From Alloascoidea hylecoeti (Eukaryota), in contig BCKZ01000002.1 in assembly GCA_001600815.1 (NCBI GenBank), forward strand, positions 558,001-622,000: a DNA stretch of 64,000 nucleotides, read 5' to 3'. Positions 18,323-61,779 of the stretch are shown in pieces. The notes beneath the pieces were generated by a model. That model made no database searches and was not told the DNA's origin. It saw nothing but the letters and a program-made list of their open reading frames with translations. Within the stretch, counting starts at the first letter, position 1; the number at the start of each line of letters is the position of its first letter. The position numbers and the translations under genes are program-made.

Positions 18323-19115
18323 ATGGTCAAATCAGCAAAATCCTCCACTAAAGCTACATCCCTTGCAGTCACTTCCCATCCTCCTTACAAAGGTATGTCG
18401 AATATACTTTGACTCGGTTGTTGTCTTTCAATCGTGTCTGTTCTGTTAGATCTTAAAAAATTTGGAACAGAAATTTCAATCGATATTCTGGAAGATAGCT
18501 CAAACAATATCTAACACGTGCTTTCATTTTTTCTTTAGTTTTAATCACTGAGGCAATCATTGCCTTGAAGGATAGAAAAGGATCAAGGTATGCTATAATG
18601 AATGACGGACGCGTCACCGAAAAAGTGTTTAACATTTTTTTATTTGTAGTCGTCAAGCTTTAAAGAAATACATCCAATCTAATTGGGATGTTAAAGCTTC
18701 CAATTTTGACTCCCAAGTTAATTTGGCTTTGCGCCGTGGTGTCGCTGGTGGTGAGTTTTCCCAACCCAAGGGCCCTGCCGGTACCGTGAAGTTGGTTAAG
18801 AAAGAGAAGCCTATTTCTGCTTCTAAGACAGAGAAATCACCACCCAAACCAACCAGTACTGCTAAACCTTCGACTTCAAAAGCAAAAAAAGTAACAACCA
18901 AGCCTGCTACCGCTAAGATCAAGCAAGTCGCTCCCAAGAAAACTGCAGCCAAGAAAACCGCTCCAAAGAAAGCAGCCCCAAAGAAGCCTGCTCCAAAGAA
19001 AGCAACCCCAAAGAAGCCTGCTCCAAAAAAAGCCGCTCCCAAGAAAGCTGTTTCTAGCAAGACTTCAGGAAAGGTTACTAAGGCCAAACCAACCAAGAAG
19101 ACTGTCAAGAAATAA
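18323..19115 (+). CDS. HHO1: Linker histone H1; exons 18323-18392, 18539-18587, 18650-19115
   Basis: Two introns restore the H15 globular domain (HPPYKVLITEAIIALKDRKGSSRQALKKYI...QPKGPAGTVKL), followed by a K/A/P-rich tail. Confidence 0.93.
18930..19049 (+). repeat. Coding 15-nt tandem repeat (about 8 x APKKx) in the H1 tail
   Basis: GCTCCAAAGAAAGCA-like units repeated in frame. Confidence 0.8.
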
Positions 19116-28787: not shown

Positions 28788-29571
28788 TCATAACTTAAGT
28801 TGAAATTTATCCTTCCATCTTAATTCAGCATTTTCCCAGTTAAGTACTTTATAAATGTTCTTAATATAATCTGCTTTATTATTATAGTATTGAACATAAT
28901 AAGCATGCTCCCAGAAATCAATTCCAATCAATGGAGTGAAATTCAAAGGAACAGGGTCTTGATCTTTAGTGCTTATTAAGACAAGAGTTCCGTCCAGATT
29001 TTTTTTGGCTAACCATCCCCATCCACTACCTTGAATTCCAAGGAGAAGCTTGGTGAATTCTCCCTCAAATGATTCGAAAGATCCCCATTGTTCAACAATT
29101 TTCTTTTTCAAATCAAAACCACCTGAAGCACTGGGGGATGAAGCTGGTGCTAAGTTTTCCCAAAACAATGAATGATTAATGTGTCCTAAATTACAGGTTA
29201 AGATCAGTTACTTGGTCTTTAACTTTTATTTAATTTAGTAGCAATAAACGTTTCACTTACCACCAGCATTAAACTTAATTGTATTTTGCAAATCAACCTG
29301 TTTTCTAATATCTTTAGAATCAACAGCTGCTTTGACCTGAGCATAAGCAGCATTCAAATTGTTTACATATGTCTGATGATGTTTCGAATGATGCAATGTC
29401 ATAATTGTCTCGTTTATATGGGGCTCGAGTGCCTAAAGTAATAAGTTAGTTTAGATCTAGATTGACCGGATCAAATTCTGGTACTTATATATATTTGTTA
29501 ATGTTAGCACAAACTGGACATACATTGTAAGCATAAGGCAATTGGGGAAGTACAAATTCTTTTGGAATCAT
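28788..29571 (-). CDS. Mn superoxide dismutase without mitochondrial presequence (Sod3-like); exons 29571-29524, 29432-29261, 29185-28788
   Basis: Spliced product MIPKEFVLPQLPYAYNALEPHI...LHHSKHHQTYV...FNAGGHINHSLFWENL...QGSGWGWL...DFWEHAYY contains the metal-ligand motifs. Confidence 0.9.
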
Positions 29572-31159
29572 TGTGAAGAAATGAATAGAATTATGAGTGA
29601 AAGAAATAAAAAAGAGGAAAATCTCAATATTTATATATAAACAATCCGAAGGAGCTAGAACGTCTATTTCTGACGAATTGCAATTTTTATTTATCTTTGT
29701 ATTTAATTGAGAACCTTGATGAGCATATTAAATATACTTAATCGAGTAATTACCACTGACTGCATATGCATATAACTTATTTTCAAACTGTCAACTAACT
29801 TGCAATTAGATTTTTCTTTTTTTGCCAATATTTGAAGTATATGGGTATAAGGCTATAAGCTACTAGCAACGATTTTGTATTTAAATATTGACTTGATAGT
29901 AATAAAATGATCAACATCATTGATAATTGATGATCAGATTGTTATATTATGTAGTTGCCAATCAACTTAATTATTAACCACGAGACAATTATGATCATGA
30001 ATAAAATTAAGAGACAATAAATTCTATACAGTATATGCTATAGTTACTTTACTCGTAATATACTAAACTACTATACATATGTATTTCTTTTTAATTCATA
30101 CTTTATATGATATTTTATTTTGAGTATGGCGTACGTTGAAATCGATTGATTACCCGCCCTCATTCTTAATTTTGAATCTTTTCAATCCAGTTCCCTATGT
30201 GCCTTCTGTACACTCCTGGCGTGATACCTGTTACTTAATCAGTCTTTATTCCCTTATCAGCACACCATTATATCCACCACCTACATACCAATATATCCAC
30301 CCCCATTATACCAATTACAAGATACTGTATTAATTAGCTTATGTAAATGAATTTATTATGTTCCTCTACCGAGTATAAATTTATAGATATTTAGAGGCTG
30401 ATTGAAATGATAGTATTATTAAAAAAAATTTAAACCCCTTATTAGTTCTGTGCTCTAAGATATAACCTTATATACCCTCATAGTCCCTCAACATTAACAC
30501 ATAGTTTGTGTGTGTGAATCAAATCATGATCACAACAATTTTATTACTCAATTATTAATAAATGGCTAATTACAATACTAGTGCGTTGTTTTTTTTTTAC
30601 TTGATTAGAGGTTAAAAAAAATTCACCTTTTTTTCTTTGAATGTCATATTTTTCACATCGACATCACATTCCAACGCAGAAAACATAACACAAACATAAA
30701 TGTTCTTTTAAGAACATAAAAACTTGGAATATACCAGCCGATTGTATACAATTAATGTACACTAGAAACGATGAGACTATTTATCTTTCTCCACAATCCC
30801 TCAAAATTCAGTTACAATTGCAACAACATGCATATTTATAACATGCATATTAGAGGTCCAAGAAATGGAGTTTTCAAGTGAATATTATATAATTAAAATC
30901 CAATAAAATTGATGGTAGGATTTATTCTTTCTTTGCCCTACTTATTATCTCCCGAGTCCCTACCCATCACAAATTCACAATGCAATCTAATCCAATTTCA
31001 ACACATATAATAAAAAGGTGTATGGGTGTGTTTTCACATTAACCGTATCTTATCTCATATACAACATATCAATCAAATGGCAAATAGATTAAATTTAATA
31101 AATAATAATAAATAAATAAGTTCTATATTCTAAATCTAGATCTAATTTTAATTCGGATT

Positions 31160-39666: not shown

Positions 39667-39738
39667 GCTCCATTGGCCAAATGGTAAGGCATCTGCCTCC
39701 TAAGCAGAAGACTGCGGGTTCGAGTCCCGTGTGGAGTG
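39667..39738 (+). tRNA. tRNA-Arg(CCU)
   Basis: Cloverleaf: acceptor GCTCCAT/GTGGAGT, anticodon arm TCTGC-CTCCTAA-GCAGA, T arm GCGGG-TTCGAGT-CCCGT; downstream T6 terminator. Confidence 0.95.
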
Positions 39739-40390
39739 CTTATTTTTTGAATAAAATTTCGATCACTTTTCAGGTCATTGGCTGCTTCATTCAAAGCTTT
39801 GTTCTGAATCACTTAGGTGCTACGGACATAAAAAGAAAAAGAGGAAAGATGTACACATGTACAAATGATATCATTTGATAGTATTGATTGAGTGAAAGTA
39901 GGAAATGGTGACATTAATACCATAAAAAGTAGCAACATTACTCAAAAAGAGTGAACCTATATAACATTAGTAATAGGTTTTTTTTATTTTCACAATTTTT
40001 TGGTTGTTATAAATATATAGTATTTATAGATATAGAAGTTTAAGATAGCCTTAATGGACACTTGAAAAAAAAAAAACATTCTCCGGCAGTGGATCAATCT
40101 AAAGGTAAATTAGAAAAATGTATCCTATGCTTACAAAACGGTACTGAAACAGAAACATGTCTTTAACTGTTACTATAATATTTAACTCGCTCGTTTATTG
40201 GAAAAGATCTATGCTTGAATGATTTGATTTGCCCACCCTTGTAAGATTCTCAGTTTATAAAACACATAAGCTTTAGTGTGGACGTAATATGGTAAATACG
40301 GGTCCTTAGACGCTTTAGTTCCACTAATTTAACAATATTGGAGTCCTCATCAATTATTAAATTGGCGAATATGGAAAAACGAAAATTAAT

Positions 40391-41100
40391 TCAAAAATTC
40401 AAATAAAGTAGATGATCATGTTAGAAATTCGTTTCGTGGCACAGTGGTTGAATGTTTTGCATCAATCCCAAATCGAAACCAGCTACATGTATTGCCAGTA
40501 TAGGCCCTAGCTAGGGAGAGTTTTAGTTGGTATGGCCTAAAGTTGAGTTCTGCACTGTTGAACAGTTGCTCGATCTTTGTCCATAATCTCATTTCCCACC
40601 CATTAACCCGGGCCCGGTTAGTTAACTGGAAACGGCGAAAGCTGCTCCTCGGACCCAAAAATCGAGACTTTGTAGAACCAATTATAAGACTATACACAAC
40701 AGTGTAACTTTATACGAACTTTTTCTCTTCAATTCTTTTTATCCTCTTATAGATTAGTATAGTTAATTAATTAATAATAGTAACAAAAAAAGTCTTGGGA
40801 TTACTCCCCATATAATAAACCTTATAAAGTTAGCACGATCGTGTTTTTTGTTAGTCCCAAGATCTGACTTTACGAAGCCGTGACAAGTTACATCCCAATT
40901 GCTTTTAAAGAGATACGTGTTCTACGCTTCCGAATATCTATCAAATATAGGTCTATATGTATTTTACCATTGACCAACTATTTGCAATGAATATATATTT
41001 ATTTTAAATGTAGCCCGGGCATGAAGCTCAATAGTTAAAAAATGAACTACCAAACGATTAATCGGGTTCTCACTTTCGAACGGATACATCAAACACTCAA
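40391..41100 (-). ncRNA. Candidate large structured ncRNA (identity unresolved)
   Basis: Nested long-range complementary segments, several completed by G-U pairs on the minus strand; Sm-like AAUUUUUGA at 40399-40391; no convincing ORF. Confidence 0.4.
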
Positions 41101-41272
41101 TTTCTTAAAAAAATATCTATAAACTAAAAAACTTAGCTTATAAAAAGAAAAATCAAATGTATAATTTGTGTTTAACATGCAAAACGCATGTAAACTTGAT
41201 CCGTCCTTGTGAGAAAAGGAAAAGAAACTGAAGGAAACTACAAAAAAGTGTTTTTATTAAATTTCGTCAAAG

Positions 41273-41297
41273 CCGGGTAATGATTGAATAATTAGGG
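41273..41297. promoter_or_regulatory. Reb1 (CCGGGTAA 41273-41280) plus Tbf1 core (TTAGGG 41292-41297)
   Basis: Exact motif matches between the ncRNA candidate and HSH49. Confidence 0.5.
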
Positions 41298-41369
41298 CCA
41301 TTTTTGAAATTTGAGTATAATATTGTTACAACCTAATATTTGATATAAACATAAAGAAAATATATATCT

Positions 41370-42104
41370 ATGGCACAACGGGAGTCGGAACGAAATCAAG
41401 AGGCTACTGTCTATATTGCAGGGATAGCTGATGAAGCTGATGAAGCTTTAATATATGAATTAATGGTTCAAGTCGCTCCAATTGTTGTCGTTAATTTACC
41501 GAAGGACAGAATTTCTCAATCCCATCAAGGATATGGATTTGTTGAGTTTAGAACCGAAAAGGATGCTGATTATGCAGTAGCAATAATGAATGGTGTAAAA
41601 CTATATAACAAGATCTTGAGAGTCAAGAAGGCGACAGCCGATAAACAAAAAGGTATTGATGTCGGAGCAACATTATTTATTGGTAATTTAGACCCATTAG
41701 TTGATGAACAGACATTACACGATACTTTTAGTAAATTTGGAAACTTTATACGGCATCCAACTATTATTAGAGATGAGGAAGGGATATCTAAAGGTTACGG
41801 TTTCATCTTATATGATGATTTTGAAAGTTCGGATAAAGCTTTAGAATCAATGAATAATCAATACCTAATGAATCGAGCCTGTACTATTTCATATGCCTAT
41901 AAGAAAGATGGAAAGGGAGAAAGACATGGAGATGCTAGTGAGAGAATGCTAGCTGCTCGGGCTAAAGAGAATGGTACTTTACCTACTTTAGAGACTAATG
42001 GAGTAGGAGGTGGTGCTAATTCAATTCCATTGAATACCAATAGAACACCGGCACCGGCACCAGACCCTGTGTATCTGAATGGATCAGCGCTATTCAGAAT
42101 GTAA
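41370..42104 (+). CDS. HSH49: U2 snRNP SF3b subunit Hsh49/SF3B4
   Basis: ERNQEATVY...LPKDRISQSHQGYGFVEF; second RRM; YAYKKDGKGERHG. Confidence 0.95.
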   Translation: MAQRESERNQEATVYIAGIADEADEALIYELMVQVAPIVVVNLPKDRISQSHQGYGFVEFRTEKDADYAVAIMNGVKLYNKILRVKKATADKQKGIDVGATLFIGNLDPLVDEQTLHDTFSKFGNFIRHPTIIRDEEGISKGYGFILYDDFESSDKALESMNNQYLMNRACTISYAYKKDGKGERHGDASERMLAARAKENGTLPTLETNGVGGGANSIPLNTNRTPAPAPDPVYLNGSALFRM

Positions 42105-51463: not shown

Positions 51464-52431
51464 TGAAGTAAGCTACTAATGACTTAATAGCTTACAATAG
51501 ATGTAACTGGCGGAATCAGATACAGACGACGATCAAGATCTTAAACAGGAAAAATGTATTAAAGCTAACCTCCCTCTCTTTAAAGTGGGATTTATCTTAC
51601 GTTTATATAGATAAATCCAAAAGCTATTAATAGGAACAGTTCTAGAAGTAATAAACATAATAAGATATTAAATGTGCAGTAAGAATGAAATACAATTGTA
51701 TATATCCCCGAACTGGCTAGTTCAAGAACTGTGGAATGTCTTCCAGGAACCAATATAAAATGCATCCAAGACATGTTAAATATACTCGCGAAACGATAAC
51801 CAAAGGAACACCCAAAATAATGACGATGCCATGATTGTTCCTTTACACTCTTTGTAAAACTTTCTTCTTTCTTTATGGTTTCTTATTGTTATTATTTTAC
51901 GTTTCATGCTGATACACTCCAGCATGGCGATAAGTACACCTATTGTCGTATGATCTATATATAAACCAGACATAGCTAGAACTATATAAACCCTCGTTTT
52001 TCCTGTTCTCTTGTTAGGTGTCTTTAATTAAGAATTAATATACTTTTTCTTGTTTCCTGTTTTGTGTCGTGACACTCTTTGAAAAGTAAGCTACTAATGT
52101 CTTAGTTGCTTACAATAAATATATCTGGCGGAATCAGATAAAGACGACTATCAAGATGCAAACAAGAAAATATATATTAAAGCTAACCTCCTTTCTTTTA
52201 AAAGTGGGATTTATCTTATGTATATATAGATAAATTCAATATTTATTTATAGGCAATTACAGAAGTAAAATAAACTAAGAATAAAATATACAATGAAGTA
52301 TATGTGAGATACCAACATGTATCGAGAAATAATATAAAATGTATCCAAGAAATGGTAAATGTACTCGCGAAATAATAACCAAAGAACAACCAAAATAATG
52401 ACTATGTCATGATGAGTTCCTTTACACTCTT
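51464..52431. mobile_element. Two diverged direct repeats upstream of tRNA-Gln, probable solo LTRs (51464-52074 with TG...CA ends; truncated copy 52080-52431)
   Basis: 51464-51852 aligns with 52080-52431 (AAGTAAGCTACTAATG, CTGGCGGAATCAGATA, AAGTGGGATTTATCTTA, TTCCTTTACACTCTT). Flanks CTGTT/CTCTT resemble a 5-bp target duplication. Confidence 0.6.
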
Positions 52432-56800: not shown

Positions 56801-57262
56801 TAGTTTCTATAAGTAACATATTCAACATTTTCTCTAGTGTAGCCTTTTGAAGGTCCTCTTTTCTGTGGAATTCTACTGAAAGAGCATTTCTCGCCTATTT
56901 TTCGACAATTGGAACAAGTAGTTGGTATATCTCCGGATACCACCCCACGAAGCTGTACCGGGGTCAGTGAGGTTAAATCCGCGTCGCATTTGATCTACCG
57001 AAAGAAGCGAAAATATTTAGTTAGTGGGAGGTACCATCAGATGATGTTGAAATGTATATACTTTTTTCTTGCGACACTATAATATACGAGTTAGTACCTA
57101 CTTCTACATAACAATGATGTGCAAACATACCTGATCGCACGCCCTGGAGACCTTCGACCGTTTCCGACGGGTGCCGTTTGGGTCTGAGCTGGTGGTGACT
57201 GCCACCGTCTGCTGTCCTGGACGGCCAGCCTGTTCTGCCTGGGGAGGTTGATCTGATGCCAT
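53803..57262 (-). CDS. RGT1: Glucose-responsive Zn2Cys6 factor Rgt1; exons 57262-57131, 57076-57062, 56994-53803
   Basis: Spliced RKRSKVSRACDQ|CRKKK|IKCD...TCSNC...CSFSRIPQKRGPSKGY matches the Rgt1 DNA-binding domain; FWKVP motif present. Confidence 0.88.
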
Positions 57263-57310
57263 ACAGAAGAAGGAGGAAATCTTCGGAGGCTGTCTATACT
57301 GAAAGAAACA

Positions 57311-57318
57311 TTACCCGG
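57311..57318. promoter_or_regulatory. Reb1 site TTACCCGG in the 103-bp gap before RGT1
   Basis: Exact consensus match. Confidence 0.5.
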
Positions 57319-57365
57319 AACTCAGCCATATATTATTATTGTCTATCTATCTAAATCTACCAGAT

Positions 57366-58571: not shown

Positions 58572-59257
58572 TTGTATATTTGTATATATATGTAGATAAT
58601 AAGGATACCGACCTGTTTAAATAAGCAAACAAATAAGATATACAATGATAAATGATATAAATAAGATTTTCTGAATCATAAACCAAAAGAAAAGAAATCT
58701 ACCGATAATGTATTTAATTGTTGTTAATTTCACATTCAGCAATTATACTTTGTAATAACCCGCAATGCTAAACCAAACAAGCTTTGTGCAAATCTTAATA
58801 TTTGGTGTATAATCCAATTATAATCACTTTTGACGGTATGGGGTTCAACGGACACAAAAGCAACAATGTTAAAGTTAACATTTGTTATTGTGTAATATTG
58901 ATTATATATACCATCAGAAATGATTAGTAATATTTCTCCACAGTTTTACAAGTATCTATCCTTATAATTATACATGAGAGGGATCAAACATCTGAAAACT
59001 CCCATGCATTGTTTATAGAAAACAATACACAACTCCGATATCGATGGGATCATCATCTGATGCCATTGACATTACAAACAAAAGTCAATTGATGTATCTC
59101 ATCTTTTGCCATTTTCCTTTGTTTGAGAGAAGCTGGTGGAACGTTTGCTGATAGTTACCCTGTTAGGATGATGGCCCGATACGGAAAATACGAAATATAT
59201 AAAACTTGTCCCTTTCTCTTCTTCTCTTCTTCTTTTCTCATTTTTCATCCCTTTTAA

Positions 59258-60562: not shown

Positions 60563-61779
60563 TTGTACTGGTACGCAATGTTACTACATAATAGTACACA
60601 TACATTCGATTAGTTATAAAATACTCTATGATATTGAATTTATAAAGATATCATATGGGTATAAGTTATACTTTTACTATTATGAAACATTAAACTACAT
60701 TAATATTAATAATATGAATATTCTCTTAAATTTCAAAAATATATATTAAATGAATTTCAGAAAACTAAATATAACTACAGAAACATATAATTATAAAGCA
60801 AATCTAACTCTTTTACAAAGAACTGTAACTGTTCTTACTTGACTAGTGCTAAAATGATGATTAACTACTTCATCTTCGTCATCACCCCCTTTAAAACCAT
60901 GGGAAAAGCATTTCTGTAGAAAAAAAACAATTTGATGTTCCTGTTCTTCGGAACAAAGAGATATTGAAGTGTCAATATTTTCAAGTTTGGGGCTATCTCT
61001 ATGACAGAATACTTCTTTTTCGTCGGCTGAAATATCTTTATTGATATTTAATATTTTTCAGTTCTACTTTTGAAGCTGATTGGGACCTCGACTTCGGTCA
61101 GAACAAAATAATACGAATCATTAGAATTAAATGGGGAAGAAATTTCAGTCTCAATTTTATTGGGGTTTGAACATTTTTTAGTTCTAATTCCAATGCTGGT
61201 TGGAAACTTGACGTCAATGGTAACAAAATAATAAGAATCATCTTCATCAGAATCATGAGAATGAAATGAAGAAATTTCAGCTAGAAATGATTTAATATCA
61301 ATAAAGATATTTCAGCCGACGAAAAAGAAGTATTCTGTCATAGAGATAGCCCCAAACTTGAAAATATTGACACTTCAATATCTCTTTGTTCCGAAGAACA
61401 GGAACATCAAATTGTTTTTTTTCTACAGAAATGCTTTTCCCATGGTTTTAAAGGGGGTGATGACGAAGATGAAGTAGTTAATCATCATTTTAGCACTAGT
61501 CAAGTAAGAACAGTTACAGTTCTTTGTAAAAGAGTTAGATTTGCTTTATAATTATATGTTTCTGTAGTTATATTTAGTTTTCTGAAATTCATTTAATATA
61601 TATTTTTGAAATTTAAGAGAATATTCATATTATTAATATTAATGTAGTTTAATGTTTCATAATAGTAAAAGTATAACTTATACCCATATGATATCTTTAT
61701 AAATTCAATATCATAGAGTATTTTATAACTAATCGAATGTATGTGTACTATTATGTAGTAACATTGCGTACCAGTACAA
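60563..61779. repeat. 486-bp inverted repeat (60563-61048 / 61294-61779) with a 245-bp spacer
   Basis: Arms are exact reverse complements wherever checked, including the A8/T8 run. End coordinates are symmetric, so there is no net indel. Confidence 0.95.

Follow-up and report, generated by a model that had tools for sequence, protein, structure and literature searches.

The region at 40391-41297 of the window, a 64,000-nt stretch of budding-yeast DNA (GC content 33%) that is analysed here as a whole, raises the question of which RNA gene, if any, it encodes. The first-pass annotation had read it as a structured minus-strand RNA of about 700 nt, possibly telomerase RNA. The upstream end of the flagged stretch is an ordinary H/ACA guide RNA of about 210 bases, a short counterpart of snR86, and not a 700-base telomerase RNA. 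We are highly confident that it represents a stand-alone H/ACA snoRNA gene, orthologous to snR86, that occupies about 41215-41006 of the minus strand head to head with HSH49 and should modify the equivalent of LSU U2314.

At gathering thresholds, Rfam identified three tRNAs and nothing else in the whole window, a six-frame Pfam scan of 39760-41192 gave matches in none of the six frames, and no second copy of the flagged region was found within the 64 kb. By contig depth, 40432-41500 is single-copy, with at least one strain difference among those listed (at 40916 in run X3). The protein collection contains no close relative of the host: the RRM protein encoded at 41370-42104 has its best match, at 66%, in an SF3B4/HSH49 cluster that includes Trichomonascus, and the SPB1 protein shares 53-59% identity with the matches listed, which come from several yeast groups. 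At these values (HSH49 no more than 66%, SPB1 53-59% among listed matches) the relatives are too diverged for a synteny comparison, and no homologous locus for covariation analysis was found.

The minus strand of 41225-41006 folds at -59.1 kcal/mol (z -6.36; 0/200 shuffles as good), with the MFE structure near the centroid, compared with a z of -2.84 for the opposite strand. By composition-corrected energy it comes second of 1130 non-ORF windows of 220 nt, and its z is the best of the ten most stable; the grid began on the snoRNA boundary by chance, and the remaining windows were not optimised in this way. The snoRNA's 3' end was placed three bases past the ACA box and the 5' end, at 41215 or about 41207, was derived from the fold, giving the following features, with those of the putative promoter:

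41006-41215, minus strand: predicted box H/ACA snoRNA of the snR86 type, about 210 nt (fold, box and pocket)
41067-41215, minus strand: 5' domain, about 150 nt (z -6.18, 0/200 shuffles as good)
41214-09/41073-68, minus strand: outer stem of the 5' domain (predicted fold)
41206-199/41085-78, minus strand: stem of the 5' domain (predicted fold)
41195-41170, minus strand: side hairpin of the 5' domain (predicted fold)
41165-41088, minus strand: long arm of the 5' domain (predicted fold)
41071-41076, minus strand: putative non-canonical H box AAAGUG, partly paired in the predicted fold
41070-41065, minus strand: alternative H box AGAACC, partly paired in the predicted fold
41063-41066, minus strand: 5' strand of the lower stem, CCCG, pairing with CGGG at 41017-41014; reads as in the Rfam snR86 consensus
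41056-41061, minus strand: 5' side of the pocket, UUAAUC, pairing with LSU GAUUAA; common to the Rfam snR86 and DdR18 consensus
41026-41055, minus strand: upper stem of 11 bp (41055-45/41036-26; p 0.93)
41019-41025, minus strand: 3' side of the pocket, UUCAUGC, pairing with LSU GCAUGAA
41006-41011, minus strand: ACA box plus three bases, ACAUUU, behind the lower stem; aligns to the final positions of the snR86 model
41280-41274, minus strand: Reb1-like motif TTACCCG (sequence motif)
41299-41292, minus strand: Tbf1-like motif GGCCCTAA (sequence motif)

The 3' hairpin contains a bipartite pocket between two stems, with six plus seven Watson-Crick pairs, an upper stem of 11 and a lower stem of 4, and is followed by an ACA box that stops three bases short of the predicted 3' end. 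The distance from the box to the start of the 3' pocket side is 14 nt, within the 14-16 nt used to define such a pocket. On the 3' side, UUCAU is common to snR86 and the full UUCAUGC to DdR18. A full guide descriptor (at least 11 bp, upper stem of 7, lower stem of 4, box at 14-16 nt), run on both strands of the window, matched the snoRNA site and no other. A looser descriptor, which took every uridine in 2.4 kb of LSU rRNA as a possible target, produced 12 candidates in the window; since this LSU stretch had been chosen for containing the target, the snoRNA match is given by construction with both descriptors and the rarity of the others serves as the control. The snoRNA has the longest upper stem of these candidates (11 versus at most 6), and one other candidate forms more pairs (14 bp).

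Taken alone, the two pocket sides predict the target GCAUGAA-U-N-GAUUAA, a pattern that occurs at a minimum of 112 loci when scanned against prokaryote genomes. Of the ten archaeal loci tested with Rfam, five proved to be LSU rRNA and five did not; each of the five LSU loci has G at N. In all five archaeal LSU loci the U of the 13-bp target sits 56 nt behind the U of the helix-69 loop, which was placed by a motif that we take to be that of this loop. A yeast table places pseudouridine 2258 in helix 69 and lists 2314 as guided by snR86 (PMC8307265, partial text); the archaeal spacing of 56 nt equals 2314 minus 2258, and the target therefore corresponds to LSU U2314 in yeast numbering, as read on archaeal 23S rather than on the host's 25S. 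By its letters, the pocket should direct one LSU uridine to pseudouridine.

An Rfam search had been suggested for fungal TER, RNase P/MRP, SRP and snRNAs; it returned none of these, and sub-threshold matches to snR86 and DdR18 instead. With lax filters, 40968-41110 matched positions 901-1008 of the snR86 model (RF01272) on the minus strand, ending at 41006, with E 0.28 and 11.3 bits, below the gathering threshold of 120 bits for a model of 1008 nt of which only the final 108 positions can match here. A second run gave E 0.68, and a further three runs were without an snR86 match. The common letters are CCCG-UUAAUC ... UUCAU-CCGGG ... AUUU, continuing through the last model position. DdR18 (RF01568; E 3.4-8.1), a further H/ACA family, matched the same strand and also ends at 41006, with both pocket sides and the ACA position aligned. 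SRP, RNase P and RNase MRP had no match in the Rfam runs at E up to 10.

Saccharomyces cerevisiae snR86, an RNA of about 1000 nt, is required for LSU 2314 and is conserved in its 3' hairpin only (PMC2551606, as far as its available text goes). The RNA described here shares with it the guide in the 3' hairpin, the UUAAUC/UUCAU pocket, the CCCG/CGGG lower stem, the terminal AUUU and a paired 5' domain that terminates just ahead of the guide hairpin. In contrast, it measures about 210 rather than about 1000 nt, its 5' domain about 150 rather than about 900 nt, its neighbour is HSH49, and it has an ACA box in place of the AAA of the Rfam consensus. According to the accessible part of PMC5824354, the fungal H/ACA median length is 188 nt, Nc_HACA_7 of Neurospora (about 180 nt) is a distant snR86 homologue with the same target, and S. 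pombe AJ632008 also has this predicted target; the guide lies in hairpin 2 of Nc_HACA_7 and in hairpin 1 of AJ632008, both of which are likened here by description and not by sequence. The Dictyostelium DdR18 model (147 nt, two hairpins) has its pocket sides and ACA position as in the present RNA. The locus is a compact member of the known snR86 family that falls below Rfam thresholds, and the available portions of the snR86 literature do not describe it. In an isolated budding-yeast lineage, a 210-nt form with snR86-like letters in its 3' hairpin agrees with the idea that snR86 reached 1 kb through a later expansion of its 5' domain, links snR86 to the 180-nt Neurospora homologue, and offers a short query for the orthologues that, in the consulted portion of PMC5033589, were not found in three Candida species.

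The main helices of the 5' domain have p 0.83-0.99, with one at 0.53, when the downstream 620 nt are included. Folding of 41225-40385 entire preserves the 5' domain and the upper stem of the guide hairpin; a palindrome past the predicted 3' end, CCCGGG at 40614-40606, captures the lower stem (p 0.82). No guide pocket was identified in the 5' domain, the best against archaeal LSU being 9 bp, and its 150 nt would have a structural role. No canonical ANANNA H box occurs at the hinge position, for which the predicted outer stem leaves no room. Our guess is that, with an outer stem confined to the precursor, AAAGUG would be part of an unpaired hinge. Fungal H boxes vary at their sixth position according to PMC5824354 (available text).

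Fold, box spacing and pocket letters are read from this DNA and the target position from archaeal LSU rRNA, and transcription, processing, binding and modification we infer from known H/ACA biology. The snoRNA would be transcribed by RNA polymerase II from a Reb1/Tbf1-type promoter and its 3' end cut back to three bases past the ACA box. The 3' hairpin would then be bound by Cbf5, Nop10, Nhp2 and Gar1, and the pocket would pair with six plus seven bases of LSU pre-rRNA around an unpaired U-G (GCAUGAA-U-G-GAUUAA). Cbf5 would isomerise the unpaired U, the equivalent of S. cerevisiae 25S U2314. Expression, Cbf5 binding and a need of this pseudouridine for the snoRNA are predicted.

The putative Reb1- and Tbf1-like sites are situated 60-85 bp upstream of where the snoRNA is predicted to start and 70-90 bp from the HSH49 ATG (41370). 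The window contains 14 Reb1-like motifs, two of them with CCCTAA within 60 bp; the one at the snoRNA is 90 bp from the HSH49 ATG, and Reb1-like motifs also occur 113-310 bp ahead of four other ATGs. Because they are found near the HSH49 ATG and other ATGs, the putative motifs are no proof of a second gene. Tbf1 binds S. cerevisiae snoRNA promoters (PMC6410037, partial text). The motifs would belong to a promoter that the snoRNA probably shares with the divergent HSH49-like gene. Of the original proposal, the minus strand, the structured non-coding RNA and the Reb1/Tbf1-like promoter probably stand, whereas the RNA's size, its ends and its telomerase identity do not.

Downstream of the snoRNA, the minus strand of 41005-40430 folds as shuffled sequence does (z 0.02; 54/100 shuffles as good), compared with z -2.10 (2/100) for the plus strand; over 40495-40735 the values are +0.63 for minus and -2.00 for plus. 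One feature of the plus strand stands out:

40437-40447, plus strand: perfect Pol III A box TGGCACAGTGG, the sole strict match in the window (0.05 expected)

The A box begins 12 nt inside single-copy DNA, at the edge of a GC-richer stretch (0.454 over 40421-40680 versus 0.312 +/- 0.051). Weak B-box-like letters at 40470-40480 and T runs at 40719-23 (T5) and 40736-41 (T6), about 290 nt past the A box, lie on the same strand. These observations would fit a convergent Pol III gene in 41005-40430 that supplements the snoRNA, and the uniqueness of the strict A box, the GC island and the better fold of the plus strand speak for it. Against this, motif and boundaries were picked after inspection, the loose A-box consensus has eight matches in the window with 3.7 expected, the B box is mismatched at its conserved GTT, lax filters in Rfam likewise brought no match to SRP, RNase P, MRP or snR52, and there is no guide pocket against archaeal LSU. 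We consider such a gene rather unlikely; 41005-40430 could represent either an additional gene or an ancient remnant. The plus strand also has a GC-richer arm at 40513-40726 (z -2.0) and, at 40780-40899, a local fold with z -4.1 in which the helices 40793-800/40855-62 and 40781-90/40844-53 cross each other.

That there is no RNA gene at all, and that the likeness to snR86 arose by chance in AT-rich promoter DNA, would agree with the sub-threshold Rfam scores, the lack of a clear H box and the presence of other non-ORF windows at z -4 to -5.5. Chance would have to account for the concurrence of the fold, both pocket sides, both stems, the box distance and an exact known rRNA position, which makes this explanation quite improbable. 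Even less probable is a short, convergent telomerase RNA transcribed by Pol III from the plus strand, between the A box at 40437 and the T runs at 40719-40741. A template-like CAUUUCCCACCCAUU at 40590-40604 of that strand has a 4-nt repeated end and is unpaired in the fold of 40495-40735; if true, it would write the 11-nt repeat AATGGGTGGGA. We know of no fungal telomerase RNA that is transcribed by Pol III.

The telomerase RNA originally envisaged would run from 41100 to 40391 on the minus strand, with its template at 40525-40511 and an Sm site at its 3' end. Its raw material is present in the DNA: all eight proposed helices pair, four of them through G-U pairs possible on the minus strand only, and the Sm-like AAUUUUUGA (40399-40391), TTACCCG (41280), GGCCCTAA (41299-41292) and CUAAAACUCUCCCUA occur as described, with the C-rich stretch carrying a 3-nt repeated end. 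The absence of U1, U2, U3, U5 and snR30 signatures was likewise confirmed. Furthermore, 40432-41500 is single-copy, and homology searches miss yeast TERs (PMC6115765, partial text). Nevertheless we regard this reading as practically untenable, as its template is misplaced, its Sm-like motif lies within a repeat, its long helices are outcompeted by the local fold, template-like stretches abound in the window and no junction or pseudoknot descriptor matched in 40430-41005 minus.

The claim of a 700-nt fold did not survive comparison with shuffled sequence, where it was at chance level (z -0.6 to -1.5). The MFE z was -0.62 for 40385-41110 minus (4/20 shuffles as good) and -1.48 for 40440-41105 minus (4/60). 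Seven Watson-Crick stems of at least 8 bp, versus 4.0 +/- 2.0 in shuffled sequence, were reached by 5/60 shuffles. Including G-U pairs, stems of at least 10 bp number 16 versus 12.6 on the minus strand (11/60 shuffles) and 15 versus 7.2 on the plus strand (0/60), and because G-U stems are enriched on plus and not on minus, an unbiased count gives no minus-strand preference. The end-to-end duplex has p = 0.004 with hand-picked windows, is equalled in 26/200 shuffles once windows are scanned, and is equalled by 8% of 1254 anchors in the window, which were not GC-matched. The helix 41100-91/40448-57 falls from p 0.94 when folded from 41105 to 0.0 when folded from 41225, because its 5' strand pairs locally. 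In the fold of 41225-40385 entire, which adds 125 upstream bases, the five long-range helices have p of 0.002 or less, and the internal arms 0.0 (one) and about 0.1 (two). The earlier 5' end at 41100 falls in the middle of the snoRNA, and about 600 of the 700 nt extend past the snoRNA 3' end.

The letters of the Sm-like motif are present and are not the gene's own, as they lie inside a multi-copy element:

39790-40425, no strand assigned: dispersed multi-copy repeat, about 630 bp, containing the Sm-like motif at 40399-40391 (contig depth)

DNA contigs of four runs (X1, X3, X4 and X5) were matched to the window at 80% likeness. In bin 40371-40431 the summed depth was 88 versus 6.2 (X3), 74 versus 10.8 (X4) and 168 versus 22.4 (X1), or 7-14 times single-copy depth in three of the four runs, X5 being too shallow; summed depth does not equal copy number. 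Diverged contigs span 40201-40425 in three of the four runs, and contigs depart from the window sequence at 40425, with loose ends in X1 and X3. The Sm-like motif itself has 10 minus-strand matches in the window. The repeat lies directly 3' of tRNA-Arg(CCT) (39667-39739), has an A run at 40065-40077, and contains no Pfam remnant across 39790-40425.

The proposed template was rejected on position and context. In the proposed RNA it sits at the 3' end, with 112 nt between it and the Sm-like motif, compared with about 580 nt in K. aestuarii; behind it there is no room for a pseudoknot or a three-way junction, and at least 25 template-like stretches occur on each strand of the window. In the accessible text of PMC6115765, which also gives the K. 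aestuarii distance, yeast TERs are ordered as boundary element, template and pseudoknot, with the template necessarily before the pseudoknot, and the three-way junction is absent from some; in K. lactis the junction lies about 30 nt ahead of the Sm site (PMC2094081, partial text). The order of boundary element, template, pseudoknot, junction and Sm site is not found here. A crude junction descriptor (A linker, A-U pairs, GU linker) built from the available text of PMC2094081 has 166 cores across the window and none wholly inside the single-copy 40430-41005 minus. Likewise, our own crude descriptor of a U-A.U triple-helix pseudoknot 3' of the template, limited to a short middle loop, had no match in 40430-41005 minus.

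No entry of the telomere repeat table of PMC7857110, compared by eye, fits the proposed unit, and the species may be absent from that table. The tandem pattern of the proposed repeat has one match in metagenome contigs, a collection in which the organism may be absent; it is internal to a 9-kb contig and represents a short degenerate cluster and no array. A 15-nt reading of the template resembles the Sporopachydermia quercuum repeat, a likeness attributable to chance, as 59 of 160850 template-like stretches of the window share nine or more letters. A small bump in depth at 40493-40614 (0.2-0.5 of single-copy depth) is not telomeric-looking. Compared with budding-yeast telomerase RNAs, the locus thus lacks the template-pseudoknot-junction-Sm order and a junction match, and has its Sm-like motif in a repeat; its likeness to TLC1, K. 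lactis TER1 and the Yarrowia TER is limited to the superficial traits first noted. The long-range helices are chance pairings, the template is flanking DNA and the Sm site is repeat. A false telomerase RNA candidate is thereby removed, which is of modest importance.

A large plus-strand RNase P or MRP RNA that carries a long insertion has almost no probability: letters resembling CR-I to CR-V stand in the right order and 40425-33/41053-59 could form a P4-like helix, but Rfam gave no match on either end piece, P1-P3 would fall in the dispersed repeat, and the letters taken for CR-IV and CR-V are those of the snoRNA stem and pocket read as reverse complement. Candida MRP RNAs of 0.9-2.2 kb (PMC5033589, partial text) would accommodate the size. 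SRP, RNase P, MRP, snR30 and C/D box readings were considered and dropped after Rfam and motif checks.

Elsewhere in the window, 58780-59040 on the minus strand folds (z -4.97; 0/200 shuffles as good) into hairpins, behind which come AAAGUG and, late, an ACA. It lacks a 9-bp pocket against archaeal LSU, is divergent from a GAPDH gene, a Reb1-like motif being present at 59155, and is probably a further H/ACA snoRNA below Rfam detection. The non-ORF windows 29056-29275 (plus), 30656-30875 (minus) and 51806-52025 (plus) fold with z -4.1 to -4.5 (25 shuffles each). The GC-richest non-ORF stretches are 57061-57320 (0.50) and 18721-18980 (0.49), and a long inverted repeat at 60600-61700 forms 50-mer duplexes at -48 to -71 kcal/mol.
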